A stretch of DNA of 64,000 bases from Acidimicrobiia bacterium (GCA_965203555.1 CBDBCY010000004.1:2026007-2090006); one strand, 5' to 3'. Positions 4,020 to 26,180 are shown, counted from the first letter of the stretch. Notes: generated by a model from the letters alone, not told the origin. Program-made: numbers and translations.

Positions 4020-4049
4020 GGATCCACCTTGTCCTGTCAGGCTACCCGG

Positions 4050-4871
4050 ATGGCGAAACCAAGTATTCTGTGTCCAGTGAACAAGGCCCACATTGGAAGC
4101 GATCTGGAGCTGGCGCTGGCGGTTGCCCGCCACGCGGCGCGGCGGCTGAGGGAGGCCCTGGGCAAAAGCGCCGAAGTGGAATTCAAGGGGCAGGTGGACC
4201 CTGTCACCGAGGTGGATCGGAGGGTGGAAACCGAGATACGACAGATGTTGGAAGCCCAGCGTCCTGCCGACGCCATCGTGGGAGAGGAAGAGGGCGGGAT
4301 TCTCTCTTCACAGGGACGGGCTTGGATCATCGATCCCCTGGACGGCACGGTCAACTTCATACACGGCTTGGCGCCGGTCAGCGTGTCGGTTGCGCTGTGG
4401 GAGAACCGATCTCCGATGGTGGGGGTGGTGATCGAGGCCATCCACCGGGAGGAATTCACCGCGGCGCGTGGCCAGGGAGCTTGGCGGGGCGGCCAGCCGA
4501 TCGCGGTCAGTTCCAACGAACGACTCTCCCAGGCGCTGGTCGGCACCGGTTTCCCCTATGATCGGCAGGAGCGGGCCTTCGAGTACGCCGCATTGCTGGG
4601 GGCGGTTCTCGCCAAATGCCAGGGAGTTAGGCGGAGGGGATCGGCGGCTTTGGATCTCTGCTACGTGGCCGACGGCAGATTCGACGCCTTTTGGGAACAG
4701 GGACTGGCGATCTGGGACGTGGCTGCCGGGATTCTGATCGTTGAGGAGGCAGGGGGTAGGGTAACCGGTCTGGATGGAGGACAGGTCCCATTGGACGGAT
4801 CGATGGTGGTTGCCACCAACGGCGTCATACATGACCCGTTCGGACAGGTGCTGGCCCGGGCGGTGAACTGA
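4050..4871 (+). CDS. Inositol monophosphatase family protein (SuhB/ImpA-like)
   Basis: IMPase motifs: EEEGG, IIDPLDGT, WENRSP..., WDVAAGILIVEEAGG. The start is ambiguous among TTG 4029, ATG 4050 and GTG 4077. The gene is divergent from lnt with only 9 bp between the outermost candidate starts. Confidence 0.8.
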   Translation: MAKPSILCPVNKAHIGSDLELALAVARHAARRLREALGKSAEVEFKGQVDPVTEVDRRVETEIRQMLEAQRPADAIVGEEEGGILSSQGRAWIIDPLDGTVNFIHGLAPVSVSVALWENRSPMVGVVIEAIHREEFTAARGQGAWRGGQPIAVSSNERLSQALVGTGFPYDRQERAFEYAALLGAVLAKCQGVRRRGSAALDLCYVADGRFDAFWEQGLAIWDVAAGILIVEEAGGRVTGLDGGQVPLDGSMVVATNGVIHDPFGQVLARAVN

Positions 4872-4887
4872 TTAGAGCGAAGAGGGA

Positions 4888-6867
4888 GTGACTATGGGAG
4901 AATCCACAGCCCAGATATTCGATTACACCGGGATTACCGCGGAGCGGATCGAGGAAATCAGCGCAGCCGCCGTGGCGGATGCCGAACTCTTGCGGTCGCA
5001 GATTCTGGAAGCCGGACTTCCTCGCACCTTCCGGAACACCCTTGCTCCTCTCGAGAGGGTGGGGGAGGTGTTCAGCACAGCTTTTGGCGAGGCCGGGTTC
5101 ATGGGCTATGTCCACACCGACCCGGAAGCCAGAACGGCGGGTCGCGCCTGCGCCGAGCGGCTCTCGAAGTGGCAAACAGAACTCATCTTCCACCCGGAGC
5201 TTTACCAGGCCGTGGAGGAATTCGCCGGCACCGAAGAGGCGGCTGCCCTGTCGGGAGAACGCGCCCGGTTGCTGGAGTTCGTTCGCAGGGATCTCAAGAA
5301 GGCGGGGCACCATCTTCCGGCCGAGTCCCAGGCGCGCGTCAAGGAACTCACCCAGCGTCTAATCGAACTTGGGGTTGCTTTCTCCCAGAACATCGCGGAA
5401 TACGACGACGCTCTGGAGGTTTCCCGTGAGGACCTGGACGGGTTGCCGGCGTCTTATATCGATTCTCTTCCACCTGCCGAGGGGGAAGGGCGGCTTCGGG
5501 TGACGATGGCCTATCCCCATGTCGTGCCCTTCATGGAAAACGCTCATCGCCGGGACCTGCGCCAGAGCCTCATTAAGAAATTCAACAACCGGGCGGTGGA
5601 CAGCAATCGGCCGATCCTGGAAGAGGCGGTGGCAATCCGCCTGGAAATAGCGTCCCTGTTCGATGAGCCTTCCTGGGCTCATCACCGCCTTTCCGAGCGG
5701 ATGGCCAAAACACCGGAGACAGTGGAGCAGTTTTACGAATTGCTGCTGGCGCCGCTCCGTACCGCTGGTCGCCGCGAGCTCGATCGGATCACGGCAATGC
5801 TCGAAGCCGACAACGAGGAGGGCCCTGCCCAGGTGTGGGATTGGCGGTACTACGACAATCAGATCCGACGGACCGAGTACGGAGTAGACCAGATGGAGGT
5901 GGCGGGGTACTTTCCGCTTTTCCAGGTAGTGGAAGGGATGCTGGATCTCACCGGAGAAGTCTTCGGACTCCGATACCGAGGGGTGGATGCGCCGGTCTGG
6001 CACGAGGATGTGATTACGTATGAGGTCCTCGACCGGGCTTCGGGTGAGCCCATCGCCCACTTCCACATGGACCTGTTTCCCAGAGAGGGCAAGTTCAGTC
6101 ATGCCGCGGCATTCCCCTTGGTGGGAGGGCGTTTACTGGAGGACGGGTCTTACCATCGGCCGCGTTCCTGCATAGTGGCCAATTTCACCCCGCCGCTCGA
6201 GGGAACACAGGCACTGCTGCAGCATTCGGAAGTGGTGACCCTCTTTCATGAATTCGGGCATATCCTCCACCAGATTCTCACTCGCGCCGAACTCGGGCGC
6301 TTCTCGGGATCCAGCACAGAGTGGGATTTCGTGGAGGCGATCAGTCAGATCATGGAGAATTGGACCTGGCAGCCTCAGATCTTGGCGCGGTTCGCCTTCC
6401 ATCATGAAACCGGTGAACCCCTGCCCGCCGAACTCCTGGAGAGGCTCACCGGCGCCCAATTGTTGAATATTGCTATCTCAAAACTTCGCCAGGCGAGCTT
6501 CGGGCAGTTGGACATGGCTCTGCACGGCCCCGACCGTGACAAGGACATCGACGAGATACTGGATCGCACCACCAAGGTGTCGCTCTTTCCCCGGCAGGAA
6601 GGGACCTTTTCACCGGCCAGCTTCGGTCACCTCATGGGTGGATACGACGCTGGGTACTACGGCTATTTGTGGTCGGAGGTGTTCGGGGACGACATGTGGA
6701 GGCGTTTCGAGGAAGAGGGAATCACCAACCCGGCGGTGGGCATGGCTTACCGGCGGGAGGTATTGGAGGTGGGGGGCTCCCGCGACGCGATCGACACGCT
6801 CCGCGCCTTTCTGGGAAGGGAGCCCGACAACAGCGCCTTCCTTCGCAAACTCGGAATTGACGGGTAA
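4888..6867 (+). CDS. M3 family zinc metallopeptidase (oligopeptidase A / peptidyl-dipeptidase Dcp-like)
   Basis: 659 aa with the HEXXH zinc motif in LFHEFGHILHQIL and the M3 family length and architecture. RBS AGAGGGAG precedes the start. Confidence 0.9.
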   Translation: MTMGESTAQIFDYTGITAERIEEISAAAVADAELLRSQILEAGLPRTFRNTLAPLERVGEVFSTAFGEAGFMGYVHTDPEARTAGRACAERLSKWQTELIFHPELYQAVEEFAGTEEAAALSGERARLLEFVRRDLKKAGHHLPAESQARVKELTQRLIELGVAFSQNIAEYDDALEVSREDLDGLPASYIDSLPPAEGEGRLRVTMAYPHVVPFMENAHRRDLRQSLIKKFNNRAVDSNRPILEEAVAIRLEIASLFDEPSWAHHRLSERMAKTPETVEQFYELLLAPLRTAGRRELDRITAMLEADNEEGPAQVWDWRYYDNQIRRTEYGVDQMEVAGYFPLFQVVEGMLDLTGEVFGLRYRGVDAPVWHEDVITYEVLDRASGEPIAHFHMDLFPREGKFSHAAAFPLVGGRLLEDGSYHRPRSCIVANFTPPLEGTQALLQHSEVVTLFHEFGHILHQILTRAELGRFSGSSTEWDFVEAISQIMENWTWQPQILARFAFHHETGEPLPAELLERLTGAQLLNIAISKLRQASFGQLDMALHGPDRDKDIDEILDRTTKVSLFPRQEGTFSPASFGHLMGGYDAGYYGYLWSEVFGDDMWRRFEEEGITNPAVGMAYRREVLEVGGSRDAIDTLRAFLGREPDNSAFLRKLGIDG

Positions 6868-6951
6868 TCATCGCTTTGTCTCCAACCCCTAGAACTTGGC
6901 CGGGGGCCTGATCACTACTGCCCGTTGATCGCCTATGGTCGAGTCGGAGGC

Positions 6952-7653
6952 TCAGGACTCCAATTCGATGCCTCCGAACAGGCAGGTCCCGGTTATCGTG
7001 AGCCGGCCTGCGGCGGTGCCGGGAGACGGTGGGGAACGATCATCGTCGACGCCGCCGAATAAATTGGTGGTTCGAACATCAACGATCCAACCGTCGGGGA
7101 CGCGAATCGAAACGCCGCCGAATACCGCCGTGACGTCCAGGGTGGCTTCGCCGGCGGCGAGGCCCGCGTCCAGCAGGTTTAACTTGGAACCACCGAACAC
7201 GCAGGTAATCCGGCCGCCCGAGAAGTTGTGATCCGTGACTCTTCGTCTGTCTTCTCTGAAGACGGTGGTGACGTCCAATTCGCCCGGTACGGAATTGTCG
7301 TCAAGATAGGGTTCGGGCGCCTGTCGGGCCCTTTTCCTCTTCCGGCTCAACAGCATCTTTGCTCCCACCAGGATCAGGACCACCGGCCAGAACCGCCAGA
7401 TGTCCCCAATGGTGTACTCCCAAACATCCTGTGTATCCAGGAGGAAGAACACGCCCAAGGCGATCAGCACCAGGCCCCCGAACCAGGAGCGGTTCCGTGC
7501 CATGTTCCAGAGTCCCACCGCGATCAGGATGGCGGGCCACCATCCACCCCACGGGATGTTCCAATCGGTGAGATTCTCCAAAAGGAACACGACACCGATG
7601 ACGAGGAACGCCAATCCGACGACAACTCGGCGGCCTCGATCAGATTTTGCCAT
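6952..7653 (-). CDS. LiaF-like (DUF2154/toast-rack) membrane protein
   Basis: N-terminal Trp-rich TM helices (DWNIPWGGWWPAILIAVGLW) and a C-terminal repetitive beta-solenoid segment (FGG...FGG...FGG). The start is ATG 7653 (MAKSDRGRR...) with AAGGAG 8 nt upstream. Confidence 0.6.
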   Translation of the reverse strand: MAKSDRGRRVVVGLAFLVIGVVFLLENLTDWNIPWGGWWPAILIAVGLWNMARNRSWFGGLVLIALGVFFLLDTQDVWEYTIGDIWRFWPVVLILVGAKMLLSRKRKRARQAPEPYLDDNSVPGELDVTTVFREDRRRVTDHNFSGGRITCVFGGSKLNLLDAGLAAGEATLDVTAVFGGVSIRVPDGWIVDVRTTNLFGGVDDDRSPPSPGTAAGRLTITGTCLFGGIELES

Positions 7654-7847: not shown

Positions 7848-7922
7848 GCAATTTCAAACCCACACGGGAGCCTCCGACCTCCCTTGCCAACGGCCTTTAG
7901 GAGCGAAAGGTATGGAAAGCCA

Positions 7923-9128
7923 GTGATCGAAGAGTCGGGTTCCGGCATGCTTCGACTCCGAAACGGTCAGGCCGTTTTCGACCACTTTGTCGAAGCCGGC
8001 AGCCAAACCATCTCCCGGGCCGAACTTGCCCGCCTGACCGGACTGTCAAAGCCCACGGTGAACGCGCTGGTGTCCGACCTGGAGAAGTCGGGAGTGGTGA
8101 AACTGATTCCCTCCGTCCAGACCCGCGGCCGGATCGGTAGGCCGGCGGCTTCTTACCAATTGGCGGCTGACGCGGCCATGGTGGTGGGTGTCGACATGGG
8201 AGCAACGAAGACCCTGGTGGGAGTCGCGGATCTGCTGGGAGAGGTGATAGCCGTGGAGCGGATCGAGACCGCACCCCACGCAAGGGCGGCGGTTGACGGG
8301 GTGGTGGCCACCACACGTCGTCTGCTGGAGGGCCTTGGGGAGCGGGCTTGCCGGCTCGAGGGCGCCTGTGTAGGAGTTCCGGGCGTCTACCGGCCCGAGT
8401 TGGACCGAGTGGAAATGGCGCCCAACCTGCCGGGGTTCGGGGATCTGGCGATCGCGGCGGAGTTGTCGAGGCAACTGGGGATTCCGGTGAGCATTGAAAA
8501 CGACGTCAATCTGGCCACTGTGGGAGAGGCGAATGCCATGACCGGGGAGGGGGTAAGGGATTTTGCGGCCATCTCGATCGGAACCGGGATCGGTATGGGG
8601 ATGGTCCTGGACGGGGAACTTTATAGAGGCGCCCATGGGGCGGCCGGCGAGATCGGGTCGGTAAAGCTTCCCCGGGTGGGCGGTGACGTGTTTCACGCTC
8701 TCACGCTGGAGGACGTGGCGTCGGCGCCGGCTATCCGCAAACTGTTTCACCGAGCGGTCGAGGCCGGGCATCGTACCGGTTTGAACGGTGACGTCGACGT
8801 GCCCGCCATTTTCTCCGCTTCGGCCCAGGGGGACGAGGCAGCGAGGGCGGCGCTTCGCATAGCGGCCGACTCGGTCGCTTTTGCAACGTCCTACTTCTGC
8901 TGGGTAAATGACCCCGCCCTGGTGGTGTTCGGGGGAGGCGTAGGCGCCAATCCCGTTTTTGTGGAGGCGGTAAGAGCGCGGATCGGACGCTACCTGACGG
9001 TGGTTCCGGAACTGGTGCCTTCCACTATCGGTGGACAAGCCGCATTTTTGGGGGCGGTCTCCACGGCGCTCTCCTCGGTGCACAAGTCGTTGGTCACCAG
9101 GCGACTGGGACGAAGGAGCGGGAGATGA
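7923..9128 (+). CDS. ROK family transcriptional regulator (N-terminal wHTH + sugar-kinase-like domain)
   Basis: HTH segment ISRAELARLTGLSKPTVNALVSDLEKSGVV followed by the ROK fold (MVVGVDMGATKT..., GIGMGMVLDGELYRGAHGAAGEIG). Start uncertain: TTG 7884, GTG 7923 or ATG 7944. Confidence 0.8.
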   Translation: MIEESGSGMLRLRNGQAVFDHFVEAGSQTISRAELARLTGLSKPTVNALVSDLEKSGVVKLIPSVQTRGRIGRPAASYQLAADAAMVVGVDMGATKTLVGVADLLGEVIAVERIETAPHARAAVDGVVATTRRLLEGLGERACRLEGACVGVPGVYRPELDRVEMAPNLPGFGDLAIAAELSRQLGIPVSIENDVNLATVGEANAMTGEGVRDFAAISIGTGIGMGMVLDGELYRGAHGAAGEIGSVKLPRVGGDVFHALTLEDVASAPAIRKLFHRAVEAGHRTGLNGDVDVPAIFSASAQGDEAARAALRIAADSVAFATSYFCWVNDPALVVFGGGVGANPVFVEAVRARIGRYLTVVPELVPSTIGGQAAFLGAVSTALSSVHKSLVTRRLGRRSGR

Positions 9129-10384
9129 AGAACGCGGCGGCCGTCATCGCCGCCGCGGTCGATGCCGACTCTCTGGTCGACCTGGTCCGGGATGCGGTGC
9201 GGATTCCCAGCATCACCGCGGATGAAGGGCGTTTCGCCGATTGGGTGAGAAGCCGGCTGGAAGAGGGTTGCTGGCACGAGGTCGATCAGGTGGAGGTGGA
9301 GCGGGGCCGCCCGAATGTGTATTCACGGGCAGGCGCCGGAGAGCATGGAACCCGGTCCCTGGTGCTGGCCGGGCACCTGGACACTGTCCATGCCGAAGAC
9401 TGGACACAGGAGTGGAGAGGCTCTGATCGTGACGATCCGTTCGCCGGTCAGGTTGTCGACGGGGAGATTTGGGCGAGGGGAGTAACCGACCAGAAGGGAG
9501 GGATCTGCTCCATCATCGAAGCGGTTCGGGCGATCTATCGGGCCGGATACCGACTGAGGGGGTCGGTGATCGGATTGTTCGTATGCGATGAGGAGTCCGG
9601 CCAGCCGGGAAGCGGGGTCTCCCTGGGGATGCGAGCCGCAGTCAAGGAGCTCTTGGAAGGCTCTGGTAGCCCGCCCGACTTTGCGATCTACACAGAGCCC
9701 ACCACCGGCGCCATCTACACCGCCCAGATGGGATTTCTGATAGCCGACATCACCCTGGTGGGCAAGTCTGCCTATTTTGGCAGGCCCGAACTGGGAGTGG
9801 ACGCGCTGAAGGCAGGGCACGCCCTGCTCGGTGCTCTGTGGGATCACAACGAGACGCTGTCTACGGGAGAAGCCCACCACCTGCTGGGAGAGCGGTTCCT
9901 GCTGGTGACCACGGTCGGGTCGGGGGGTAACATCGCCGTGCCCGGAAAGTTCGAACTGTCGCTCATTCAAAAGTTCCTGCCCGGGGATGACCTCGATGCG
10001 GCGGCCACGGCCTTGCGGGAGATCACCGCCGGAGTCGCCGAAGAGCACGGGGTCTGTTCCGAGGTGGTCTTCTCCGCTCCGAGAGATCACTCGGTGGGGG
10101 GTACCCCCGATGAGATATCGGCTAATCATCCGGGTGTGCTTGAGTTGGCCGGCGCCATCGAAGCGACCGGCGGCCGGCAGGCGAGAATCGAAGGAGCGCC
10201 CTACTGGTCGGAGAAACCGATGCTTCGGTCGGCAGGCATTCCAGGCGTCTACTTCGCGGCAGGTGATATCGCCACCTGTCACACACCTTTTGAACGACTA
10301 CCGATAGAGGATTTCGTGTCTTTGACCCGTGCCCTGGCCTACTTCGTGGCGTCGTGGTGCGGGGTGGAGAAGTCCGCAACCTAG
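9125..10384 (+). CDS. M20 family metallopeptidase (ArgE/DapE/dipeptidase-like)
   Basis: M20 signatures (LAGHLDTVH, VTDQKGG, FVCDEESG) and ATGA overlap with the ROK gene. Confidence 0.85.
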   Translation: MKNAAAVIAAAVDADSLVDLVRDAVRIPSITADEGRFADWVRSRLEEGCWHEVDQVEVERGRPNVYSRAGAGEHGTRSLVLAGHLDTVHAEDWTQEWRGSDRDDPFAGQVVDGEIWARGVTDQKGGICSIIEAVRAIYRAGYRLRGSVIGLFVCDEESGQPGSGVSLGMRAAVKELLEGSGSPPDFAIYTEPTTGAIYTAQMGFLIADITLVGKSAYFGRPELGVDALKAGHALLGALWDHNETLSTGEAHHLLGERFLLVTTVGSGGNIAVPGKFELSLIQKFLPGDDLDAAATALREITAGVAEEHGVCSEVVFSAPRDHSVGGTPDEISANHPGVLELAGAIEATGGRQARIEGAPYWSEKPMLRSAGIPGVYFAAGDIATCHTPFERLPIEDFVSLTRALAYFVASWCGVEKSAT

Positions 10385-10392
10385 GAGGAACC

Positions 10393-12597
10393 ATGAAAGG
10401 AACCCGCAAATACAAACGCAATACATCCGCAAGGTGGCTCATAACCGGTCTGGTGGCAGTGCTCAGCCTGGTTGCGGCGGCTTGCGGCGACGATGCCGAG
10501 GGCGAAACCACTACTACCCGGGCCGCCGCCGAAGCCACCACTACCCAAGCACCTGCTACGACGGAAGCTCCTCCAGAGCCTGTGGCGCCGGTTACTCAGG
10601 GGCCTGGTGGTGAGGAGGCTACCGCGTCGGGTGAGATTGTTTTGAGTGGTGATGAGATTGCGCAGGTGCAGTCTGGGGGGTATACGGCGGCTTTGCTTTG
10701 GCATACGGCGGGTGCTTTCACCGATGCGGTGAGTCAGGGTGCTCGGGATGCTTTTGCCGAGTTGGGTATTGAGGTGATTGCCGAGACGAATGCTCAGTTT
10801 GATGCTGCTCAGCAGGCCAATGATGTGGAGACTGTGTTGGCGCAGGATCCTGATGTCATTATCAGTTTGGTGATTGATCCGGTGTCGGGCGCGGAGGCGT
10901 TCCGTCCTGCGGTCGAGGCCGGGGTGCAGTTGGTGTTCTTGAGCAATGTGCCCGAGGGCTATGTGCACGGTGTCGATTATGTGGGGGTGGTGACCGATGA
11001 TCTGGCTGCGATGGGGATGGCGGCTGCGGATTTGTTGGCTGATGCGTTGGGCGGCTCCGGGGAGGTGGGTTTCATCTTTCATGATGCTGCCTATTACGTG
11101 ACCAATCAGCGTGATCAGGCGTTCAAGACTTGGATCGAGCAGCGTTATCCGGGGATCGAGATCGTTTCTGAGCAGGGGTTGGCTGATCCGGCTGCTGCTG
11201 AGGAGATCGCGGCTACGTTGTTGACGCGCAATCCTGATCTTGATGGTATTTATGCGCCGTGGTCGGCTGGTCCGGCCGACGGGGTGTTGGCTGCTTTGCG
11301 GGCGGCTGGTGCTTCTGATGTGGCGGTGGTGACTTTGGATCTGGATACCAATGTTTCGTTGGACTTGGTGGAAGGCGGGAATGTGGTTGGTATCGCGGCG
11401 GATGAGGCGTATGCGCTGGGACGGACCATGGCGTTGGAGGGTGCTTACGGTCTGTTGGGCAAGGACGCTCCTCCGTTTACGGTGGTACCGGCGATCGCAG
11501 TGACCGCTGACAACATCGTGGATGCCTACCGCCGGTCACTGGCCACCGACCCACCTCCCGAAGTCATGGCCGCACTCGGCGAGTCCGTGCCTGTGGCGCC
11601 GGTTACTCAGGGGCCTGGTGGTGAGGAGGCTACCGCGTCGGGTGAGATTGTTTTGAGTGGTGATGAGATTGCGCAGGTGCAGTCTGGGGGGTATACGGCG
11701 GCTTTGCTTTGGCATACGGCGGGTGCTTTCACCGATGCGGTGAGTCAGGGTGCTCGGGATGCTTTTGCCGAGTTGGGTATTGAGGTGATTGCCGAGACGA
11801 ATGCTCAGTTTGATGCTGCTCAGCAGGCCAATGATGTGGAGACTGTGTTGGCGCAGGATCCTGATGTCATTATCAGTTTGGTGATTGATCCGGTGTCGGG
11901 CGCGGAGGCGTTCCGTCCTGCGGTCGAGGCCGGGGTGCAGTTGGTGTTCTTGAGCAATGTGCCCGAGGGCTATGTGCACGGTGTCGATTATGTGGGGGTG
12001 GTGACCGATGATCTGGCTGCGATGGGGATGGCGGCTGCGGATTTGTTGGCTGATGCGTTGGGCGGCTCCGGGGAGGTGGGTTTCATCTTTCATGATGCTG
12101 CCTATTACGTGACCAATCAGCGTGATCAGGCGTTCAAGACTTGGATCGAGCAGCGTTATCCGGGGATCGAGATCGTTTCTGAGCAGGGGTTGGCTGATCC
12201 GGCTGCTGCTGAGGAGATCGCGGCTACGTTGTTGACGCGCAATCCTGATCTTGATGGTATTTATGCGCCGTGGTCGGCTGGTCCGGCCGACGGGGTGTTG
12301 GCTGCTTTGCGGGCGGCTGGTGCTTCTGATGTGGCGGTGGTGACTTTGGATCTGGATACCAATGTTTCGTTGGACTTGGTGGAAGGCGGGAATGTGGTTG
12401 GTATCGCGGCGGATGAGGCGTATGCGCTGGGACGGACCATGGCGTTGGAGGGTGCTTACGGTCTGTTGGGCAAGGACGCTCCTCCGTTTACGGTGGTACC
12501 GGCGATCGCAGTGACCGCTGACAACATCGTGGATGCCTACCGCCGGTCACTGGCCACCGACCCACCTCCCGAAGTCATGGCCGCACTCGGCGGATAA
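10393..12597 (+). CDS. Sugar ABC transporter substrate-binding lipoprotein (PBP type I, RbsB-like) carrying an exact in-frame tandem duplication of its binding domain
   Basis: AGGAGG is followed by ATG 10393. The signal and lipobox read MKGTRKYKRN...LVAAAC. Each repeat unit is a complete periplasmic-binding-protein type I domain. The track start at 10354 is unlikely. Confidence 0.8.
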   Translation: MKGTRKYKRNTSARWLITGLVAVLSLVAAACGDDAEGETTTTRAAAEATTTQAPATTEAPPEPVAPVTQGPGGEEATASGEIVLSGDEIAQVQSGGYTAALLWHTAGAFTDAVSQGARDAFAELGIEVIAETNAQFDAAQQANDVETVLAQDPDVIISLVIDPVSGAEAFRPAVEAGVQLVFLSNVPEGYVHGVDYVGVVTDDLAAMGMAAADLLADALGGSGEVGFIFHDAAYYVTNQRDQAFKTWIEQRYPGIEIVSEQGLADPAAAEEIAATLLTRNPDLDGIYAPWSAGPADGVLAALRAAGASDVAVVTLDLDTNVSLDLVEGGNVVGIAADEAYALGRTMALEGAYGLLGKDAPPFTVVPAIAVTADNIVDAYRRSLATDPPPEVMAALGESVPVAPVTQGPGGEEATASGEIVLSGDEIAQVQSGGYTAALLWHTAGAFTDAVSQGARDAFAELGIEVIAETNAQFDAAQQANDVETVLAQDPDVIISLVIDPVSGAEAFRPAVEAGVQLVFLSNVPEGYVHGVDYVGVVTDDLAAMGMAAADLLADALGGSGEVGFIFHDAAYYVTNQRDQAFKTWIEQRYPGIEIVSEQGLADPAAAEEIAATLLTRNPDLDGIYAPWSAGPADGVLAALRAAGASDVAVVTLDLDTNVSLDLVEGGNVVGIAADEAYALGRTMALEGAYGLLGKDAPPFTVVPAIAVTADNIVDAYRRSLATDPPPEVMAALGG
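10579..12592. repeat. Perfect direct tandem repeat, 2 x 1,011 bp (10579-11589 and 11590-12592), in frame
   Basis: Every line I compared between the two units is identical when offset by exactly 1,011 nt. The unit encodes PVAPVTQGPGGEEATAS...PPEVMAALG(ESV). The first ~880 bp of each unit use T/G-ending codons (ttg, gat, ggt, gct, att), unlike the C/G-ending host bias; the last ~130 bp revert to host usage. Confidence 0.9.
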
Positions 12598-12640: not shown

Positions 12641-13654
12641 ATGAGAGCCCATGTCCTGGCCGGCGTCGCCACCCGGTTGAGGCAGGCATGGGCCAGACAG
12701 AGCGACGACGGCGGGTTTCGACGTTACGTGGTCTATTTGGCCTTCGTTTCGATTCTCGCCGTCTTCGCTCTCATGCTGTGGGACGATGGTTTCCTGAGTT
12801 GGTCGAATCTTTTGAACATCGGCCGCCAGGCAGCGCCGATCGCGGTCATGGCGGTGGGTATGGCCTTCGCCCTGGCCTCGGCGGAGATAGATCTTTCGAT
12901 CGGATCGACCGTGGCGCTCTCCTCGTTGGTTGCCGCAGTAGTGGTCGGCGACCATGGATTCCTCATCGGAGCGCTGGCGGCGGTGGCCGTGGGTGCACTG
13001 GTGGGGCTGGCGAACGGCCTGATCACCGTCAAGATACGGATCCCATCCTTCCTGGTGACGCTGGGGATGCTGGGGATCATCAGCGGGATTGCCCGCAACA
13101 TGAACAATCTGCAGTCGATGCCGATCAGAAACGACGCCTTCTCCGCCCTGTTCGGCGCCGGGTCGCTGGGTCCTGTCTCGTCTTTGGTGATCTGGACCGC
13201 GGTGGCCTTTGCCTTGGGCCACTTTGCACTGCACCATCTGCGGTGGGGAAGGCATGTGCTCGCCACGGGGGCCAATCGGGCGTCGGCCAAAGCGGCCGGC
13301 CTCAATACCGACCGGATTCGGATCAGCGCCCTGGTGGTCAGTTCGGTGGCTGCCTCCTTCGCCGGGGTGCTGCTGGCTGGGCGTCTGGCCATCGGCCGCC
13401 ACGACCTGGGAGAGAACGATCTGCTCACCGTGATTGCCGCGGTGGTGATCGGTGGTACCAGTTTGTTCGGCGGACGCGCGTCCATCGCCGGCGCGGTGAC
13501 GGGCGCCCTGATCATGGCGATGCTCAACAATGGATTGATTCTGATGGGCCTCGAGGTGGCGGACCAGTTGATCGCCCGGGGGCTCATCATCATTGTGGCG
13601 GTGGCTCTGAGCATGAGGGCGCCGTCGGAAAGCGTGGGTGACGATGTTCCTTGA
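12641..13654 (+). CDS. Sugar ABC transporter permease (RbsC/branched-chain-sugar type)
   Basis: Ten-TM-like hydrophobic profile with conserved RbsC-type segments (GIDLSIGS, VIGGTSLFGGR). Confidence 0.85.
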   Translation: MRAHVLAGVATRLRQAWARQSDDGGFRRYVVYLAFVSILAVFALMLWDDGFLSWSNLLNIGRQAAPIAVMAVGMAFALASAEIDLSIGSTVALSSLVAAVVVGDHGFLIGALAAVAVGALVGLANGLITVKIRIPSFLVTLGMLGIISGIARNMNNLQSMPIRNDAFSALFGAGSLGPVSSLVIWTAVAFALGHFALHHLRWGRHVLATGANRASAKAAGLNTDRIRISALVVSSVAASFAGVLLAGRLAIGRHDLGENDLLTVIAAVVIGGTSLFGGRASIAGAVTGALIMAMLNNGLILMGLEVADQLIARGLIIIVAVALSMRAPSESVGDDVP

Positions 13655-14846
13655 ATCTCTGATCGGAAGGAACCGGGCCTTTCTGGAGGCCGCGGTACGG
13701 CTTCACCAGGAAAACCGGATTCCGGCCAACAGTTATGTGCTTGACCTGGACGCGGTGGAGTCGAACGCTCGCCTCATGACAGCTGAGGCTCACCGCCGTG
13801 GCTTGACGGTGTATGCCATGAGCAAACAGGTCGGACGGGCCCCGGGAGCGCTTGACGCGATCACCAGGGGTGGGGCAGACGGTTATGTGGCGGTCGACAT
13901 GGGATGCGCCCGGCCCATTGCCGCCAACGGACACGCAATCGGCAATCTCGGACATCTGGTGCAGATCCCGCGAGCCGAAGCGGCCGAGGCTGCGAGCCTG
14001 GCCCCGGAGTATTGGACCATCTTCTCCCGCAACAAGGCGGTTGAGGCTTCACGGGCAGTAGCAGCCCAGGGACGCAGGCAAAAGGTGCTATTGCGGATTT
14101 GGGAACAGGGCGATGTCTTCTATCCGGGCCACGAGGGCGGGTTTCACCTTGATGAACTCTGCCAGGCGATCGACTTCGTCAACGGTCTGCGGGGATTGCA
14201 ATTCGCAGGACTCACCACCTTTCCGGCCCTGCTTTTTGACGGGGCGGCGAAAAAGGTGAACCCCACTGCCAATGTCGAAACGCTGGCTCGGGGGGTGGAG
14301 GCTGCTCTCGGCCACTTGGGCTCGGGCTTTGCCATCGAAGTCAACGCTCCCGGGACCACCTCCACGGCGGTGCTGGATGTGCTGGCAGAGGTTGGCGCCA
14401 CCCAGGTGGAACCGGGGCACGGCCTAACCGGCACCACCCCTTTGCATGCGGTGGAGGAGCTTCCCGAACAGCCTGCAGTGCTGTACCTGACGGAGGTGGC
14501 CCACGTTCATCAGGGAGTGCCCCTGTGTTTTGGAGGGGGGTTCTATGTGGATCCGGTGTTCGAGCCTTATCCAACCACCGTTGTGGCTGCCGCCGGGCCA
14601 GAGGATGTGAGCCGGCAGCGGGTGCCGATCGACATGCCGGATCCGGCCGGTATCGACTATTACGCGCGGCTCCACCCGGAGGGTCGGGTGCTGCGGGAGG
14701 GCGACACCGTTATCGCCGGCTTCCGCATCCAGGCTTTCGTCACCCGCTCTCTGGTGGTGGGCGTGACCGGCGTCCGCGCCGGCGCCCCGGTGGTGGCCGG
14801 GATCTGGAATGTGGAAGGGGCGCCGGTCTCCTGGGGTGGCGGATGA
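13638..14846 (+). CDS. PLP-dependent alanine-racemase-fold (fold-type III, YhfX-like) enzyme; putative amino-acid or amino-sugar racemase or dehydratase
   Basis: TIM-barrel N-terminal racemase-like segment (YVLDLDAVESNARLM, MSKQVGRAPGALD) and a beta C-terminal domain. It overlaps the permease 3' end and is ATGA-coupled to the downstream ATPase. The start is GTG 13638 or ATG 13644. Confidence 0.55.
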   Translation: MTMFLESLIGRNRAFLEAAVRLHQENRIPANSYVLDLDAVESNARLMTAEAHRRGLTVYAMSKQVGRAPGALDAITRGGADGYVAVDMGCARPIAANGHAIGNLGHLVQIPRAEAAEAASLAPEYWTIFSRNKAVEASRAVAAQGRRQKVLLRIWEQGDVFYPGHEGGFHLDELCQAIDFVNGLRGLQFAGLTTFPALLFDGAAKKVNPTANVETLARGVEAALGHLGSGFAIEVNAPGTTSTAVLDVLAEVGATQVEPGHGLTGTTPLHAVEELPEQPAVLYLTEVAHVHQGVPLCFGGGFYVDPVFEPYPTTVVAAAGPEDVSRQRVPIDMPDPAGIDYYARLHPEGRVLREGDTVIAGFRIQAFVTRSLVVGVTGVRAGAPVVAGIWNVEGAPVSWGGG

Positions 14847-15610
14847 CGGCGCCTGCTCTCTCGGTGCGCAACATGTCCAAGTCGTTTCGGGCCGTGCAGG
14901 CCCTGGACGATGTGTCGTTGGACCTGCGCCCCGGTCGGGTTACGGGACTACTGGGAGACAACGGCGCCGGTAAGTCCACCCTGGTCAAATGCATCGCCGG
15001 GGTGTACCAGGCGGATGCGGGGACGATCAGTATTGATGGAGCCGTCCATCGGATCTCGTCTCCGGATGCGGCGCGCACCCTGGGCGTGGAGACCGTACAT
15101 CAGAATCTTTCGCTGATAGACAGCCTGAATGTGGTGGAGAACCTGTTCTTGAACCGGGAATACACGCGGGGCGGTCGTTTCGGCGCCAGGATCGGCTTCT
15201 TGAACAAGAGGCGAATGCATAGAGAGTGCAAAGCGACCCTGGCCAGGCTCGACATTGCCATTCCCTCGATGCGCCGACCGGTTGGTCTGCTTTCGGGAGG
15301 ACAGCGCCAGGCCATCGCGATCGGCCGGGCAGTGGCATGGGGACAACGGATCGTGCTCTTGGACGAACCCGCTGCCGCCCTGGGAGTGGAACAGGCGCAA
15401 AGGGTCATGGATCTCATTCTTTCCCTGCGAGACGCAAGGGTGGCTGTTCTGCTGATCACTCACAACATGGATCGCGTCACCGCAGTTTGTGACAATGCCG
15501 TAATTCTGCGTCAGGGCCGCAAGGCTGCCGAGGTTGAAGTCAGCCGGGTGAGCAAGGATGACTTGGTGGCCTTCATAACCGGGGCCAAATCTGATCAACA
15601 ACCGGCCTGA
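14843..15610 (+). CDS. Sugar ABC transporter ATP-binding protein (single NBD)
   Basis: Walker A GDNGAGKST, signature LSGGQRQ, Walker B LLDEPAAAL and an H-loop. ATGA overlap with the upstream gene. The track ORF start at 14525 is a wrong upstream extension. Confidence 0.85.
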   Translation: MTAPALSVRNMSKSFRAVQALDDVSLDLRPGRVTGLLGDNGAGKSTLVKCIAGVYQADAGTISIDGAVHRISSPDAARTLGVETVHQNLSLIDSLNVVENLFLNREYTRGGRFGARIGFLNKRRMHRECKATLARLDIAIPSMRRPVGLLSGGQRQAIAIGRAVAWGQRIVLLDEPAAALGVEQAQRVMDLILSLRDARVAVLLITHNMDRVTAVCDNAVILRQGRKAAEVEVSRVSKDDLVAFITGAKSDQQPA

Positions 15611-15668: not shown

Positions 15669-16406
15669 ATGGAGGTAATCGTGGAACCGGATGGCGCCGG
15701 CGTTACGCGCACCGCGGCCGACCTGGTGCAGGAGTACCTGTGCGCCACGAGAGAGCCGGCCCTGGGCCTGGCCACCGGCGGGTCCGTTGCAGCCCTTTAC
15801 CGCGAATTGGTGCTCCGATACCGGCAAGGCCGGTTGGATTTTGGCAGGGCGCGGGCCTTTTTGTTGGACGAGTATGTGGGGCTGGGGCGCTCGCATCCGC
15901 AGCGATACGCCAATGTCATTCTGAACCAGTTGGCAAGACATGTCGGCCTCGATCCTCATCGTGTTCGCGGACCCGACGGCGACGCTCCTGATTTGGCGGA
16001 GGAGTGTTCTCGCTACGAGCACCTGGTATGCGGCGCCGGAGTGGGATTGCAGATTCTCGGAGTCGGGCGCAACGGTCACCTGGCTTTCAACGAACCTGGC
16101 TCTTCCCTCGAGTCCCGTACGCGAGTGGTGGAGTTGGCCGAGACCACCAGGGCCGACAACGCCCGGTTCTTTCCCAGTCCCGCAAACGTGCCCTTCCTGG
16201 CCATCACCCAGGGTTTGGCCACCATCAGCCAAGCGGCGCATCTGTTGGTATTGGCCACCGGATCGAACAAGGCTGCAGCTGTGCGGGCAACGCTGGAGGG
16301 AACGGTCACTTCTGCTGTTCCGGCTTCGGCCCTGCGACTCCATCCACGAGTCACGTTGCTCTTGGATCCGCCGGCTGCCCGGCTAACTCGATTCGCTCTG
16401 CCCTGA
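15669..16406 (+). CDS. nagB: Glucosamine-6-phosphate deaminase/isomerase family (NagB/6-phosphogluconolactonase fold)
   Basis: LGLATGGS, AFLLDEYVGL and LQILGVGRNGHLAFNEPGSS motifs; 245 aa. Confidence 0.8.
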   Translation: MEVIVEPDGAGVTRTAADLVQEYLCATREPALGLATGGSVAALYRELVLRYRQGRLDFGRARAFLLDEYVGLGRSHPQRYANVILNQLARHVGLDPHRVRGPDGDAPDLAEECSRYEHLVCGAGVGLQILGVGRNGHLAFNEPGSSLESRTRVVELAETTRADNARFFPSPANVPFLAITQGLATISQAAHLLVLATGSNKAAAVRATLEGTVTSAVPASALRLHPRVTLLLDPPAARLTRFALP

Positions 16407-16432: not shown

Positions 16433-17224
16433 CTAGCCGCTCGCCTCGGTGGTAGTCGTTGTCGGCTCTTCGGAGTCGGCCTCCTCCGATTCGGTTTCTT
16501 CGGAATCAACCGGGCCCGGCGCCGTCAGATCCCGGCTAACGATGAGGGCCGTTATCTCTTCGTCTCCGATGTACTCGGCGATGATCGCGTCGATGCCTTC
16601 TTTGAAGACCCCGAACGCGGCGTTGAGCCCCACCTGCGCCGCCTGACGCTGCTCGCCGGTGTCAGACGACTGCAACCCGGCCAACATCTCCATTGCAGAT
16701 TCAGCGATCTGGCCAACTGCCGAGACGACGGTCAGGTGTTTTGGCGGGAAATCGCCGGTTGGGGGAACTGAAATAAGGTCGAAGTCAACCCGAGCCGTCT
16801 GGATACTCTCTGCGGCCGCTTCCATCGCCGCTTCGGTATCCGAGAAACTGACATCCGTCTCGGACCGGTTGTCCCAATCGTTGCTGATGCCGATGATCTC
16901 ATTCACCAACCGACTGACTCCCACCTCCGCCGTAAGAAGCTGTTTGAGATAATTCCGGACCACTTCGGCGGGAAACGTGGATGCAGCAGCGGGTGGTTGG
17001 GTAGTGGTGGTCGTGGAAGGCTGAGTGGTGGTCGTGGGTGGTCGGGTGGTGGAAGTCGTGGCCAGGGGGGCGATGGTGGTGGGGGGAGCGGAGGTGGAGA
17101 CCGTGGCCGCGGTGGTGGTACTGGAAGGTGGGGCCTCGACCGGATCCAGCAGGCATGAAGATCCGCCCAGAAAACTCAGGGAGAGGATGAGGAGCAAGAC
17201 GGCAGGTTTACGCATGATCGGCAC
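16433..17224 (-). CDS. Secreted lipoprotein with Thr/Pro-rich linker; paralog 1 of 3 of an uncharacterised family
   Basis: Signal and lipobox (MRKPAVLLLILSLSFLGGSSC), a poly-Thr/Pro linker, and a conserved approximately 170-aa domain (NYLKQLL..NDWDNRS..SFSDTEAA) shared with ORFs 18405-19346 and 19363-20136. Confidence 0.6.
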   Translation of the reverse strand: MPIMRKPAVLLLILSLSFLGGSSCLLDPVEAPPSSTTTAATVSTSAPPTTIAPLATTSTTRPPTTTTQPSTTTTTQPPAAASTFPAEVVRNYLKQLLTAEVGVSRLVNEIIGISNDWDNRSETDVSFSDTEAAMEAAAESIQTARVDFDLISVPPTGDFPPKHLTVVSAVGQIAESAMEMLAGLQSSDTGEQRQAAQVGLNAAFGVFKEGIDAIIAEYIGDEEITALIVSRDLTAPGPVDSEETESEEADSEEPTTTTTEASG

Positions 17225-19362: not shown

Positions 19363-20136
19363 CTATGCGACTCCGGGATGCCACCACTGTGCCTCCACCC
19401 GCCCGATGGCGTCGGAAGCGGCGGCTGTTGTTGTGGTTTCATCGTCGGGACTTTGTAGTGCTCCGGTTCCTACATTTCCCACCATCGAGGCCACCTGCTC
19501 GATCGCGTCGGTGAAGATGTCGAAGACCGCTTCCAGCCGCACCAATGCCGCCCTGCGAGCCTCGCCGGTATCCGCGGACCGTAGTCCGTCCAGCATCTCC
19601 GAGACCATGTCGGGCATCCGGCCGACTGCCGTTGCGGCCATCCGATGTGCTTGTGAAAAGTCGACCCCCGACGGCGCTTCGATCGATGCGAAGGCCTCGA
19701 CCAAATCCCGGGTGCGTTGTACGGCATCCTCCAAGGCGGCTTCAGTATCCGAATAAGAGACAGACCCTCCGGACCGATTGTCCCATTGGTCGTTTACAGA
19801 GCGGACCTGTTCCACCAGCGCCTTTACACCGGTCTCGGCCGAGAGGAGGTCTCGGAGATAATTCGAAGCGGCCTCGGTGGGAAAGGTCGTGGTGGTAGTG
19901 GTGGCCGGCGCAGCAGTGGTCGTTGTTCCAGGCTGGACCGTGGTGGTGGTTACCGTGGCGATGGTGGTTGCCTGGGCCGAAGTGGTGGTCGGTGTCCCCG
20001 CGGCGCCTGCTGAAGTGGTCTCTGGAGCATCTGCCGCATCAGGCGAACATGACGCTCCCAGGGCAGGGAGCAACATGATCGCAACAAGGACACAGGACTT
20101 TCGGAGTGTGACAGAGGAGGTATGCACCGCTCTCAT
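19363..20136 (-). CDS. Secreted lipoprotein paralog 3 (Thr-rich linker plus the conserved family domain)
   Basis: MRAVHTSS...LLPALGASC lipobox, a poly-Thr linker, and the shared SNYLRDLLSAETGV...NDQWDNRS...SYSDTEAA domain. Confidence 0.55.
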   Translation of the reverse strand: MRAVHTSSVTLRKSCVLVAIMLLPALGASCSPDAADAPETTSAGAAGTPTTTSAQATTIATVTTTTVQPGTTTTAAPATTTTTTFPTEAASNYLRDLLSAETGVKALVEQVRSVNDQWDNRSGGSVSYSDTEAALEDAVQRTRDLVEAFASIEAPSGVDFSQAHRMAATAVGRMPDMVSEMLDGLRSADTGEARRAALVRLEAVFDIFTDAIEQVASMVGNVGTGALQSPDDETTTTAAASDAIGRVEAQWWHPGVA

Positions 20137-24146: not shown

Positions 24147-26180
24147 CTATCCGGGATAGAGGTCGAAGACGTTGTCCCGGGTTACGGGTGAGACCGAGGG
24201 TATTAGCCGTTCGGGAACGGTCTTTCCTTCGATCAGGTCGACGATGGCCGGCACCAGGTAGGTCCCGTAGCGCTCGGGGAAGTAGGAGATGGTGGCTTTG
24301 AACACAGACTCCTCGTCAGAGCGCTCCCGCAAATCCACCAGCGCCTCGTCGGAGGCGCCCAGGCTGGCAGCGGCCGCGTGACCCAGGTAGCCACTCTGCT
24401 CCAAAGCCAGCGCGCAGTCCACGCCGGGCTGGTCGCTGTGGCCGAAGCACAGCACGTGCTGTGCGCCGGGGTTGGCAGTCGCCCAGGTGGTCACGTTGGG
24501 AAGGGTGTCGGTCAGGCCCTCGGTGGGGATGTCGTGGATGTTCTCGTCCGGGATGTCGAACGATTCCCGCACGCCGTCTCGGGCGCCGTCGGCGCGGGCC
24601 TTGTGGACCGGCACATCCGGAGTCCACACCAACAGCAGATGGGTGTCCTCGGGCGCCCAACCCTGCTCTTGGGCGAAGCCGGCCAGATATCGGCCGGCCT
24701 CCAGCGCCGCGTTGTAGTTGTCCGGGCCGAAGGCCACGCATCCGGGGTGGGGTCCGTCGTAGGAGACACATGGAATCCCGGCGTCGTGGAAGATGCCGGC
24801 GATCAGTTCTTCGGTGCCGGCGATCCAGTTGGCGAAGATCACTCCGTCAACCTCTTGGGTTACCAGCAGGTTGGAGCACTCCACGGTCCGCTCCTGGTCG
24901 TAGGCGTTGTCGCAGTAGACGATCTCCACGCCCATCTCGGCGGCGATGGCGTTGATGTTGTCGGTCACGCTGTCCGTAAACGGGATACCCGACAGGCCGT
25001 CGCCGTAACCGATCCTGAACGCTCCGGAAGCTTCTCGAATCACGGCTTCGTACTCATCCTCCTCAGCCATGGCTGCTTCGTCCAGTTCGCCTCCCGGATA
25101 CAGTTCCTCGACGTTGTCACGGGTGACAGGCTCCACCGAGGGGATGATCCTCTCGGGCAGGTCGGTGCGGTCTTCAATGAGATCGACGATGATGGGCACC
25201 AGATACTGTCCGTAACGCTCGGGGAAGTATGAGATAGTGGCCTTGAACACAGACTCGTCATTGCCACGCTCGCGCAGCTCCACGAGGGCTTCAGTGGATG
25301 CACCGGTTCCCGCGGCCGCGGCGTTGCCCAAGAAGCCGTTCTGTTCCAGGGCCAATCCGCAGTCGACGCCGGGCTGGTCGCTGTGGCCGAAGCACAGCAC
25401 ATGCTTGGCATCGGGGTTGGCGATCGACCAGGTGGTCACGTTGGGCAGTGTGTCGGTCAGGCCCTCGGTGGGAATGTCGTGGATGTTCTCGTCCGGGATG
25501 TTGAACGACTCCCGCACGCCGTCGGTGGCGCCGTCGGCCCGAGCCTTGTGGACCGGCACGTCCGGGGTCCACACGAGCAGCAGCTCAGTCTCTTCGGGCG
25601 CCCATCCCTGCTCAAGGGCGTACTGCGCCAGGAAGCGACCGGCGGCTACTCCGGCCTCGTAGTTGTCGGGGCCGAAGGCCACGCATCCGGGGTGGGGGCC
25701 GTCGTAGGAGACGCATGGAATCCCGGCATCGTGGAAGATATTGGAGATCAGTTCTTCGGTGCCGGCGATCCAGTTGGCGAAGATCACTCCGTCGACTTGT
25801 TGGGTTACCAGCAGGTTGGAGCATTCCACGGTCCGCTCCTGGTCGTAGGCGTTGTCGCAGTAGACGATCTCCACGCCCATCTCGGCGGCGATGGCGTTGA
25901 TGTTGTCGGTCACGCTGTCGGTAAATGGAATTCCCGACAGTCCGTCACCGTAACCGATCTTCCACGGTTGTTCGGCCGGGCGGATCACGGCTTCGTAGGG
26001 GCCGGAAGGCGCCTCTGGCTCCTCCTCCATTACCTCATCTTCGGGGGCCTCTTCAACCGCGGCGGCCGTGGTCTCCGGGGCGGCGGTGGTGCCAGGAGCC
26101 TCATCCTCGTCTCCCCCGCAGGCGGCCACCAATAGGGCAATGACCGCCACTCCAACTATCAGCTTGCGTGACATTCTCAA
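24147..26180 (-). CDS. ABC transporter substrate-binding lipoprotein with an internal, diverged tandem duplication of the binding domain
   Basis: MRMSRKLIVGVAVIALLVAAC lipobox. Two approximately 315-aa halves are about 85-90% identical (...IGYGDGLSGIPFTDSVTDNINAIAAEMGVEIVYCDNAYDQERTVECSNLLVTQ... appears twice). At the DNA level, blocks of 20-36 nt are identical about 950 bp apart. Confidence 0.8.
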   Translation of the reverse strand: MRMSRKLIVGVAVIALLVAACGGDEDEAPGTTAAPETTAAAVEEAPEDEVMEEEPEAPSGPYEAVIRPAEQPWKIGYGDGLSGIPFTDSVTDNINAIAAEMGVEIVYCDNAYDQERTVECSNLLVTQQVDGVIFANWIAGTEELISNIFHDAGIPCVSYDGPHPGCVAFGPDNYEAGVAAGRFLAQYALEQGWAPEETELLLVWTPDVPVHKARADGATDGVRESFNIPDENIHDIPTEGLTDTLPNVTTWSIANPDAKHVLCFGHSDQPGVDCGLALEQNGFLGNAAAAGTGASTEALVELRERGNDESVFKATISYFPERYGQYLVPIIVDLIEDRTDLPERIIPSVEPVTRDNVEELYPGGELDEAAMAEEDEYEAVIREASGAFRIGYGDGLSGIPFTDSVTDNINAIAAEMGVEIVYCDNAYDQERTVECSNLLVTQEVDGVIFANWIAGTEELIAGIFHDAGIPCVSYDGPHPGCVAFGPDNYNAALEAGRYLAGFAQEQGWAPEDTHLLLVWTPDVPVHKARADGARDGVRESFDIPDENIHDIPTEGLTDTLPNVTTWATANPGAQHVLCFGHSDQPGVDCALALEQSGYLGHAAAASLGASDEALVDLRERSDEESVFKATISYFPERYGTYLVPAIVDLIEGKTVPERLIPSVSPVTRDNVFDLYPG

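Follow-up and report, generated by a model that had tools for sequence, protein, structure and literature searches.

Two substrate-binding domains (SBDs) placed in series on one polypeptide, outside the membrane and passing substrate to one translocator, are described for GlnPQ of Lactococcus lactis and other Gram-positive bacteria (PMC8025302, PMC11331510). The gene treated here has a comparable layout; it lies in a 64,000-nucleotide stretch of DNA (hereafter the window; GCA_965203555.1, CBDBCY010000004.1:2026007-2090006) from a bacterium of the Acidimicrobiia, most of its relatives being sponge symbionts, and it encodes a substrate-binding protein (SBP) that also has two SBDs in one polypeptide. 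All coordinates are positions in this window. The SBDs of GlnPQ are fused to the transmembrane domain, whereas in the window the permease is encoded by a gene apart and the SBP carries a predicted signal peptide of its own; the SBDs of GlnPQ, of the amino-acid-binding type, are unlike one another in sequence, specificity and affinity, whereas the domains of the window are of the Peripla_BP_4 (CUT2 sugar) type and are identical at the DNA level. GlnPQ is the nearest functional analogue and membership in its class fails; by analogy, it is plausible that the window protein works as tandem SBDs do.

Closer in sequence are two-domain homologues with diverged halves (proteins P0013-P0018; loci L068, L079 and L080; metagenome-assembled genomes, MAGs, of Anaerolineae and Bauldia), which belong to the same family and have the SBD-SBD order and a similarly placed linker; unlike the window gene, their halves are only ~50-63% identical and show neither homogenisation nor a polar synonymous skew. 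As for the repeat itself, Gram-positive surface proteins of the alpha C/Rib family contain identical, long in-frame tandem repeats that vary in copy number and are homogenised by recombination. The repeat of the window resembles them in being in frame, nucleotide-identical, variable in copy number and homogenised; however, alpha C/Rib units are structural modules of ~80 residues in adhesins or antigens, often with a role in immune evasion, whereas the unit of the window is a complete ligand-binding transporter protein of 337 codons, usually present in exactly two copies and marked by a polar strand skew.

Literature searches returned studies of GlnPQ, of OpuA and of resection clusters in yeast, and no description of identical tandem SBP duplications or of a polar skew in repeats. 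The duplication joins known kinds, namely tandem SBDs and the concerted evolution of repeats, and its compositional signature is unexplained and possibly new. The reading argued for below, in which duplication, homogenisation, selection and skew belong together, is considered probable as a whole, and its parts are graded where they are discussed.

The duplicated gene and the history of its copies

The reading frame opens with an ATG at 10393, just downstream of an AGGAGG motif (~10381-10386), and its stop codon ends at 12597, giving a product of 734 amino acids, not 735 as a preliminary description of this DNA had it. In a self-comparison at period 1011, two stretches of 1,004 nt agree base for base, with 0 mismatches, and are spaced by the 7 nt AGTCCGT, which matches neither flank (Table 1); 1,004 + 7 nt make a period of 1,011 nt, or 337 codons, and the reading frame is preserved. 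Of the exact in-frame duplication of 1,011 bp first described, the exactness, the frame and the period stand, whereas the identity covers only 1,004 bp and the 7-nt junction lies between the copies. The junction is in frame with its flanks, GGC GAG TCC GTG (Gly-Glu-Ser-Val), with GAG in place of the terminal GGA glycine codon.

As for the product, its N-terminus reads in translation as an export signal, with a basic n-region, a hydrophobic stretch and a lipobox-like LVAAAC, and is followed by a Thr/Ala/Pro-rich tether and by the two units. The 734-residue product matches PF13407 (Peripla_BP_4) in two stretches, with 239 bits in total against a cut-off of 35.1; compared with solved structures, the unit matched 29 PDB sequences, the best being 3g1w (E = 3e-20), and these CUT2-type sugar-binding proteins span both lobes and cover unit residues ~37-318 (e.g., 5hqj). 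The gene probably encodes a lipoprotein with two complete Peripla_BP_4 domains, which bears out the lipoprotein with two identical binding domains of the preliminary description; judged from the matches, the duplication takes in the whole predicted mature part, a flexible linker plus a complete two-lobed binding fold.

A protein search returned ten relatives of 725-745 amino acids, 78-92% identical to the window protein, the halves of each being identical or 1 residue apart over 334-338 amino acids; the same search returned single-domain relatives of ~405-440 amino acids and the more distant two-domain group with diverged halves mentioned above. A scan of one genome per species gave 78 loci, nearly all in Acidimicrobiia MAGs, many of which are named as sponge associates (Candidatus (Ca.) Poriferisodalis, Poriferisocius, Spongiisociaceae, Aldehydirespirator); single loci are cited below by their L-numbers. 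Two to three tandem units occur in 14 fetched loci besides the window, and in the 15 loci measured, the window included, the units of one genome have 0 mismatches in 11, 1-3 in L002, L017 and L064, and 85 in L020. Multi-copy loci include complete long-read chromosomes (OY762464.1, OZ242000.1, OY760694.1). The short-read contigs L007, L013 and L025 stop 55-65 nt into the second copy, and L015 holds the junction; a true repeat has this effect on a de Bruijn assembler.

A Glu-type junction, ...ALG-Glu-(0-2 residues)-linker, is present in 13 genomes (the window and L087, another strain, counted once): the window, L001, L002, L005, L008, L009, L010, L012, L017, L018, L019, L020 and L024. In it, the last Gly codon of copy 1 (GGA) is replaced by a Glu codon (GAR), after which come 0-2 codons and a repeat of the last part of the N-terminal tether; L017 is a clean duplication of 1,008 nt, from the Glu codon of the linker to the penultimate Gly. 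A second class, ...ALG-Met..., is found in L003, L025 and L064. Between genomes, the units are 87-97% identical in amino acids and 69-93% in nucleotides, and the flanking proteins are 61-91% identical. The duplication is old, because its junction is common to genomes about as far apart as different genera; the very recent event proposed in the preliminary description is contradicted by this junction and by strain substitutions that occur in both copies.

These substitutions come from an independent scaffold, L087, which encodes exactly the same 734-residue product. Over 22 kb it shares 98.87% of its nucleotides with the window, an identity that marks it as another strain of the same species. 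Its two copies are identical to each other (1004/1004). The gene differs between window and L087 at ten positions, which amount to five substitutions, each at the same offset in both copies (10755/11766, 10758/11769, 11365/12376, 11442/12453 and 11556/12567); their direction is not polarisable, as the outgroups disagree. Copies evolving independently cannot yield such a pattern, which is direct evidence that concerted evolution is still going on. Across the set, copies within a genome are closer (0-3 mismatches/kb in 14 of 15 loci) than units of different genomes (up to ~30% DNA difference), and copy number shifts among close relatives, with two copies in L003 versus one in L023 at 97% amino acid identity, and three in L064 versus one in L076. 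Homologous recombination between the copies, by gene conversion and/or unequal crossing-over, keeps them identical, and the same recombination shifts the copy number between one, two and three among close relatives. That the duplication is real, old and concertedly evolving is held with high confidence on these comparisons.

Some facts weigh against this reading: the copies of L020 differ at many sites; the junctions fall into two classes (Glu, Met) and the periods vary (1008, 1011, 1017 and 1029 nt), and more than one founding duplication is possible; finally, the duplication of the window is known from assembled sequence and not from reads. Of two scans of Joint Genome Institute (JGI) metagenome contigs for patterns specific to the junction, the first had no match and the second had two, both in unrelated genes.

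Two of the multi-copy loci deserve a separate description. In L064 (OZ244822.1, Ca. Aldehydirespirator sp.), a unit of 1,029 nt occurs three times in tandem at 4014-7081; the second and third copies are the same, and the first departs from them at 2 positions. In L020 (JAJEIM010000003.1, assembled with MEGAHIT; 2992-5002), the copies differ at 85/1002 sites, with blocks of the G/T type and C-rich blocks forming a patchwork; they are either a truly de-homogenised pair or a strain chimera made by MEGAHIT.

The behaviour extends to a second gene of the window (24147-26180), located in an unrelated cluster alongside an amidohydrolase, an ATPase and a permease. The preliminary description had pointed to it as a neighbouring paralogue with the same architecture in diverged form, evidence that the lineage tolerates a duplicated binding protein, and this is confirmed by two PF13407 stretches and by a 945-nt in-frame duplication, the copies of which are 83% identical over 825 nt. 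Their exact tracts are clustered, the longest being 95 nt versus at most 67 nt in 2,000 shuffles. Near-identical halves are the rule among its orthologues, which go down to 52% identity: the halves of L082 match exactly over 845 nt, whereas those of L084 have 1 mismatch in 842 nt and those of L083 have 11 in 853 nt. Compared with them, the gene of the window is in a partly de-homogenised, mosaic state; as the orthologues are homogenised too, the behaviour extends to at least two SBP families of the group.

Codon skew of the repeat unit

The atypical codon usage of the ttg/gat/ggt/gct type noticed in the preliminary description is real and stronger than was described. With the 32 other genes of the window as background, TTG makes up 71% of the Leu codons versus 18%, and the corresponding shares are 82% versus 29% for GAT, 44% versus 15% for GGT, 41% versus 10% for GCT and 88% versus 24% for AAT. 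The codon-usage distance of the gene to the background is 0.75, and that of any other gene is at most 0.39, the three other SBP genes included; among these, SBP_bac_1 (38868-40268, +) and SBP_bac_5 (58763-60721, -) have ordinary codon usage. The fraction of G plus C at third positions (GC3) is 0.62 against 0.73 ± 0.07, so that the GC axis understates the anomaly; the relevant axis is that of keto versus amino bases, expressed here as K3, the fraction of G/T at third positions.

The background K3 is 0.483 ± 0.045, with no 100-codon window above 64%, and the long segment of each unit reaches 0.85 (Table 1); in these segments, A at third positions (A3) is essentially nil over ~300 codons, and C (C3) is at 5-25%. 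The first 54 codons of the gene (10390-10551) have a K3 of 0.35. The skew ends at the unit borders, at most 2 nt away at the start of copy 2 and ~26 nt 5' of the identity boundary of copy 1. As for the 3' end of each unit, said to revert to host usage over the last ~130 bp, the segment is really of ~93 bp and leans the opposite way, towards A/C (K3 0.27-0.29). Two antisense open reading frames (ORFs) within the repeat, at 10381-11082 (-, 233 aa) and 11536-12093 (-, 185 aa), were considered as genes and rejected: with G/T at the third positions of the sense strand, antisense codons start with C/A, so that stops do not arise, and these ORFs are a by-product of the skew.

All duplicated lineages have the same polarity: G/T takes up 80-100% of the third positions at the 5' end of the unit and 0-21% at the 3' end, and along the unit every polar locus drops from at least 0.8 to at most 0.21. 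The switch point is at ~codon 290 in the clade of the window, and at ~codon 40 in L002, L013, L014, L017, L018 and L024; in the latter loci, most of the unit has ~75-85% A/C, with T at 1-6% of the four-fold sites. Counts at four-fold and two-fold sites uphold a depletion on the same strand of C (and A) in the 5' segment and of G (and T) in the 3' segment: at four-fold sites of unit codons 1-40, A is ~0 and C usually low (0-0.29), and L018 has neither G nor T at such sites in codons 291-334. In L064, the G/T fraction at third positions declines smoothly from 1.0 to 0.0 along each unit.

A polarity index, defined as K3 of codons 1-40 minus K3 of codons 291-334, divides the loci into two groups in a bimodal distribution. 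All 19 multi-copy loci are among the 31 with an index of 0.43 or more, and the other 46 loci, with 0.21 or less, include no multi-copy locus. The direction is always from keto-rich at 5' to amino-rich at 3' (31/31 polar loci); no locus has a strongly negative index, the minimum being -0.19. The two-domain homologues with diverged halves (56-63% amino acid identity) have no polarity; therefore, the skew tracks homogenised repeats and not the architecture or the family.

The skew can change fast: L019, of the G/T type, and L018/L013, of the A/C type, have 97-98% protein identity and share only 48-49% of the codons at conserved residues, against 64-73% for the genes on either side. In the weakly constrained ends of the unit, and not in its core, the first and second codon positions are shifted in the same directions as the third; amino acid replacements between keto (K)-type and amino (M)-type proteins lean the same way, although the sign test (7 versus 1, with 7 ties) is only suggestive. 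The shifts at positions 1 and 2 point to a pressure on DNA composition rather than on codon choice at the tRNA level. Replication orientation does not account for the difference between the K and M types, as the GC/TA skews of the flanks are small (~0 to +0.1) in both and never reversed.

Against a tie between repeat and skew, it must be said that 12 polar loci look single-copy, nine in short-read assemblies and three in long-read chromosomes (L021, L023 and L040), and that the association statistics ignore phylogeny, with the polar loci falling in ~3 clades. The three long-read cases are presumably recent losses, and the short-read ones collapse or loss. The nine short-read MAGs (L004, L006, L011, L014, L016, L028, L030, L067 and L076) have one assembled copy, yet the polar skew; the assembler may have collapsed the repeat in them, and public short-read MAGs probably under-report the duplication.

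Origin of the skew and rival explanations

In yeast, both ends of a break are resected 5'-to-3' and the 3' tails are deaminated, which gives 5'-C/3'-G clusters with a single switch, the opposite order being absent or very rare (PMC6786661). Because the geometry of depletion in the repeat equals this single-switch pattern, it is proposed that recombination writes the skew. Relative to host usage, C and A are lost on the 5' side and G and T on the 3' side, which amounts to C>T and A>G changes in the top strand up to a switch point and in the bottom strand beyond it. In vertebrate mitochondrial DNA (mtDNA), these two transitions form the classic spectrum of damage to single strands, with strand-asymmetric gradients. 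Such a polarity would result if resection ran 5'-to-3' in both directions and the 3' single-stranded tails laid bare by it suffered C>T/A>G damage; the inter-copy recombination that homogenises the repeat would also write the skew, and conversion would spread the changes to all copies.

The likeness to the yeast clusters and to the mtDNA gradients lies in the depletion of C (and A) at 5' and of G (and T) at 3', with the polarity expected from 3' single-stranded DNA (ssDNA) tails, and in the gradient along the unit of L064. The differences are that the yeast clusters are single events and that the mtDNA gradients concern the replication of a whole genome, whereas the skew of the window, for which a mutational origin is proposed, would be an equilibrium composition reached over evolutionary time, limited to a 1-kb repeat and present in every copy. 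Resection should expose the flanks too, but the skew ends at the unit borders, and the relevant events would for this reason have to be limited to inter-copy heteroduplex or to repair within the repeat; this, together with the weak polarity of the second gene family, tells against the proposal. A recombination-linked origin of the skew is a tentative proposal, given about an even chance, and its version by deamination of ssDNA is more doubtful. At the same lower level stands the wider idea that the polarity is an evolutionary record of the strand polarity of recombination intermediates, in which 3' tails or strand-specific heteroduplex repair would bias transitions towards keto bases on the invading strand.

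Of the other explanations, the one that survives best is that the polar skew is selected or due to biased repair rather than mutational, through RecA pairing, through strand-specific repair of heteroduplex (e.g., by NucS) or through less intrastrand structure of DNA or mRNA. RecA reportedly pairs GT-rich ssDNA preferentially (Tracy and Kowalczykowski, 1996), and actinobacterial NucS acts on G-T, G-G and T-T mismatches, not on A-C; the keto/amino axis fits both specificities. The skew is also extreme, with A3 ~0 over ~300 codons, is tied to homogenised repeats, and its confinement to the unit is easier to understand with processes that act only on inter-copy heteroduplex. On the other hand, codon positions 1 and 2 shift as well and alter amino acids, a fact that agrees with a pressure on DNA composition but does not tell biased repair or selection from biased mutation, and the unit has no Chi of the E. 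coli type (GCTGGTGG), for which reason no claim on Chi is made. This explanation is unlikely, if a serious competitor of the recombination-linked origin.

Recurrent independent duplication is a much weaker candidate: each lineage would have doubled its gene recently, with selection passing only in-frame, whole-domain events, and long-term concerted evolution would be unnecessary. The varying periods, the two junction classes and the interspersed single-copy relatives would be expected of it, and the right breakpoint is in any case constrained to the last codons; but the same Gly-to-Glu junction codon and a homologous linker in 13 genomes, the homogenisation seen within the species between window and L087, and the mosaic states of L020 and of the second gene of the window, which resemble partial conversion, make it improbable.

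High expression, whether it acts by translational selection on codons or by mutation that transcription causes in the non-template strand, has even less in its favour. SBPs are often very highly expressed, and the transcription-associated bias on the non-template strand is indeed C>T and A>G; nevertheless, the same transcript has ordinary usage in its first ~54 codons and a reverse skew at the 3' end of each unit, close relatives are mirror images over most of the unit, three other SBP genes of the window are ordinary, and single-copy orthologues in 46 genomes have no polarity. This reading is regarded as very improbable.

The preliminary description had favoured the very recent duplication of a horizontally acquired mosaic segment, still carrying the codon usage of its donor. 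The absence of inter-copy differences, a codon usage far from that of the rest of the window and the sharp internal boundaries of the skew agree with such an origin, and other facts disagree: the junction is common to deeply diverged genomes, the strain substitutions sit in both copies, the operon is syntenic in all relatives, ranking the genomes by SBP identity gives roughly the order that the flanking genes give, and no integrase or transposase lies within the seven-gene cluster in the window or in the relatives examined. Moreover, the keto/amino skew is strand-polar and reverses both within the unit and between proteins of 97% identity (48% identical codons), which the genome-wide usage of a donor does not do. 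Recent horizontal transfer of a mosaic segment thus ranks slightly below high expression.

Weakest of all, and hardly credible, is the other possibility raised at the outset, an artefact in which an assembler expanded a single-copy gene or joined two strains: exact 1-kb tandem repeats are a classic trouble for assemblers, L004 (SPAdes), the closest relative by sequence, has one copy, and reads for the window are lacking, but the specific, in-frame, conserved junction recurs in 13 genomes from different projects and assemblers, complete long-read chromosomes included, the independent assembly of strain L087 has the same structure, some genomes have 1-3 real differences between copies, and short-read contigs end inside the second copy as with a true repeat.

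Gene cluster, uptake role and other features of the window

The duplicated gene is part of a cluster of seven (Table 1), and all relatives examined keep the order ROK, M20, SBP, permease, YhfX-like, ATPase and NagB-like. The ROK ORF listed in the table may begin too early, as the relatives have 356-401 amino acids; upstream of the cluster, an Lnt-like gene is located at 2505-4133. Regarding the substrate, the NagB-like, M20 and YhfX-like members only hint, on sequence grounds, at a compound of the amino-sugar or sugar-amine type.

Table 1. Coordinates of the duplicated SBP gene, of its parts and of other genes of the window
Feature	Position	Strand	Basis
ROK-family regulator, N-terminal helix-turn-helix; first gene of the conserved cluster	7884..9128	+	profile match, synteny
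M20-family peptidase/amidohydrolase	9125..10384	+	profile match, synteny
Gene for probable two-domain CUT2-type (Peripla_BP_4) substrate-binding lipoprotein, 734 aa + stop	10393..12597	+	translation, PF13407, identical product on an independent contig
Predicted signal peptide with lipobox-like LVAAAC; Cys is residue 31 (10483-10485)	10393..10485	+	read from translation
Non-repeated Thr/Ala/Pro-rich tether, from lipid anchor to domain 1	10486..10577	+	third positions roughly host-like up to ~10551
G/T-rich third-position segment, unit 1	10552..11493	+	K3 = 0.85, A3 ~0
Unit copy 1, 1,004 bp: linker of ~35-45 residues plus complete periplasmic-binding-protein fold	10578..11581	+	self-comparison, PF13407, PDB matches
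A/C-leaning 3' segment, unit 1	11494..11586	+	K3 = 0.29
Junction AGTCCGT, 7 nt; homologous to the junctions of 12 other genomes	11582..11588	+	self-comparison, junction comparison
G/T-rich segment, unit 2; starts at most 2 nt from the start of copy 2	11587..12504	+	K3 = 0.85
Unit copy 2, identical to copy 1	11589..12592	+	self-comparison
A/C-leaning 3' segment, unit 2	12505..12594	+	K3 = 0.27
BPD_transp_2 permease of ATP-binding cassette (ABC) importer	12641..13654	+	profile match
YhfX-like protein, alanine-racemase-N fold	13638..14846	+	profile match
ABC ATPase, 255 aa; ATGA overlap onto the upstream stop	14843..15610	+	profile match
NagB-like protein (Glucosamine_iso family)	15669..16406	+	profile match
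Second Peripla_BP_4 lipoprotein gene, 945-nt in-frame duplication; copies ~25051-25995 and 24226-25050	24147..26180	-	two PF13407 stretches, self-comparison

As for the role of the duplication, one lipid anchor would carry a pair of identical binding domains, arranged in series, that would feed one translocator and would double the capture capacity per anchored molecule with the stoichiometry of the operon unchanged; such a doubling of capture is the likely function. RecA-type recombination between perfect repeats of 1 kb should often delete one copy, and the persistence of two copies across many species despite it argues for selection for the two-domain protein, which is rated as somewhat favoured. 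The preliminary description had held that a perfect 1-kb repeat calls for an explanation, by recency or by selection: an explanation is indeed needed, and selection is probable, whereas recency is contradicted by a junction common to 13 diverged genomes. Two points weaken the functional argument, namely that the advantage is inferred, and that the AlphaFold2 model of the two-domain protein is poor, with a predicted local distance difference test score (pLDDT) of 63 and a predicted template modelling score (pTM) of 0.40; this low-confidence model has two alternating beta-alpha folds and low-confidence tethers at residues 29-74 and 365-401.

Other features of the window are listed here for completeness. 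Short in-frame tandem repeats occur in the predicted low-complexity tethers of two SBP genes, with periods of 18 nt at 39006-39093 (SBP_bac_1) and of 21/42/6 nt at 60266-60580 (SBP_bac_5). Two small paralogous ORFs, at 35388-35663 (+, 91 aa) and 36332-36616 (+, 94 aa), are 77% identical over 179 nt and 944 nt apart, and flank an ORF of 136 aa at 35840-36250 (+), similar to membrane proteins; the first contains a 21-nt tandem repeat (35502-35584) encoding VEELRHD-like heptads. Dispersed direct repeats of ~101 nt, with three members of 63-71% identity, lie at 16813-16913, 18923-19023 and 19722-19822. Finally, 47064-49337 (-) encodes a CotH-kinase-like protein with a lamin-tail domain, and 61021-63396 (+) a protein similar to the beta subunit of N,N-dimethylformamidase, the family of which also adjoins the orthologue of the second gene in L083.

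In conclusion, what looked like an artefact or a sign of horizontal transfer becomes a clean natural case of bacteria in which an entire protein-coding domain of 1 kb evolves in concert, one that runs from within-species to genus-level divergence and concerns two binding-protein families of these symbionts. Since short-read assemblies collapse or break at this gene, its copy number is probably under-reported systematically. If the recombination-linked origin of the skew is true, homogenised tandem duplications of bacteria would carry a readable signature of where exchanges initiate, and the switch points (~codon 290 in the clade of the window, ~40 in the L002/L017 clade, diffuse in L064) would mark this initiation; recombination alone could then recode ~300 codons faster than proteins diverge. 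Should the skew be mutational or repair-driven, it would give a read-out of recombination polarity from sequence only, and a 'foreign codon usage' could arise in situ. As for the organisms, the persistence of perfect repeats that are prone to deletion implies a benefit of tandem, identical, anchored domains, which may be a design principle for nutrient capture in monoderm symbionts.

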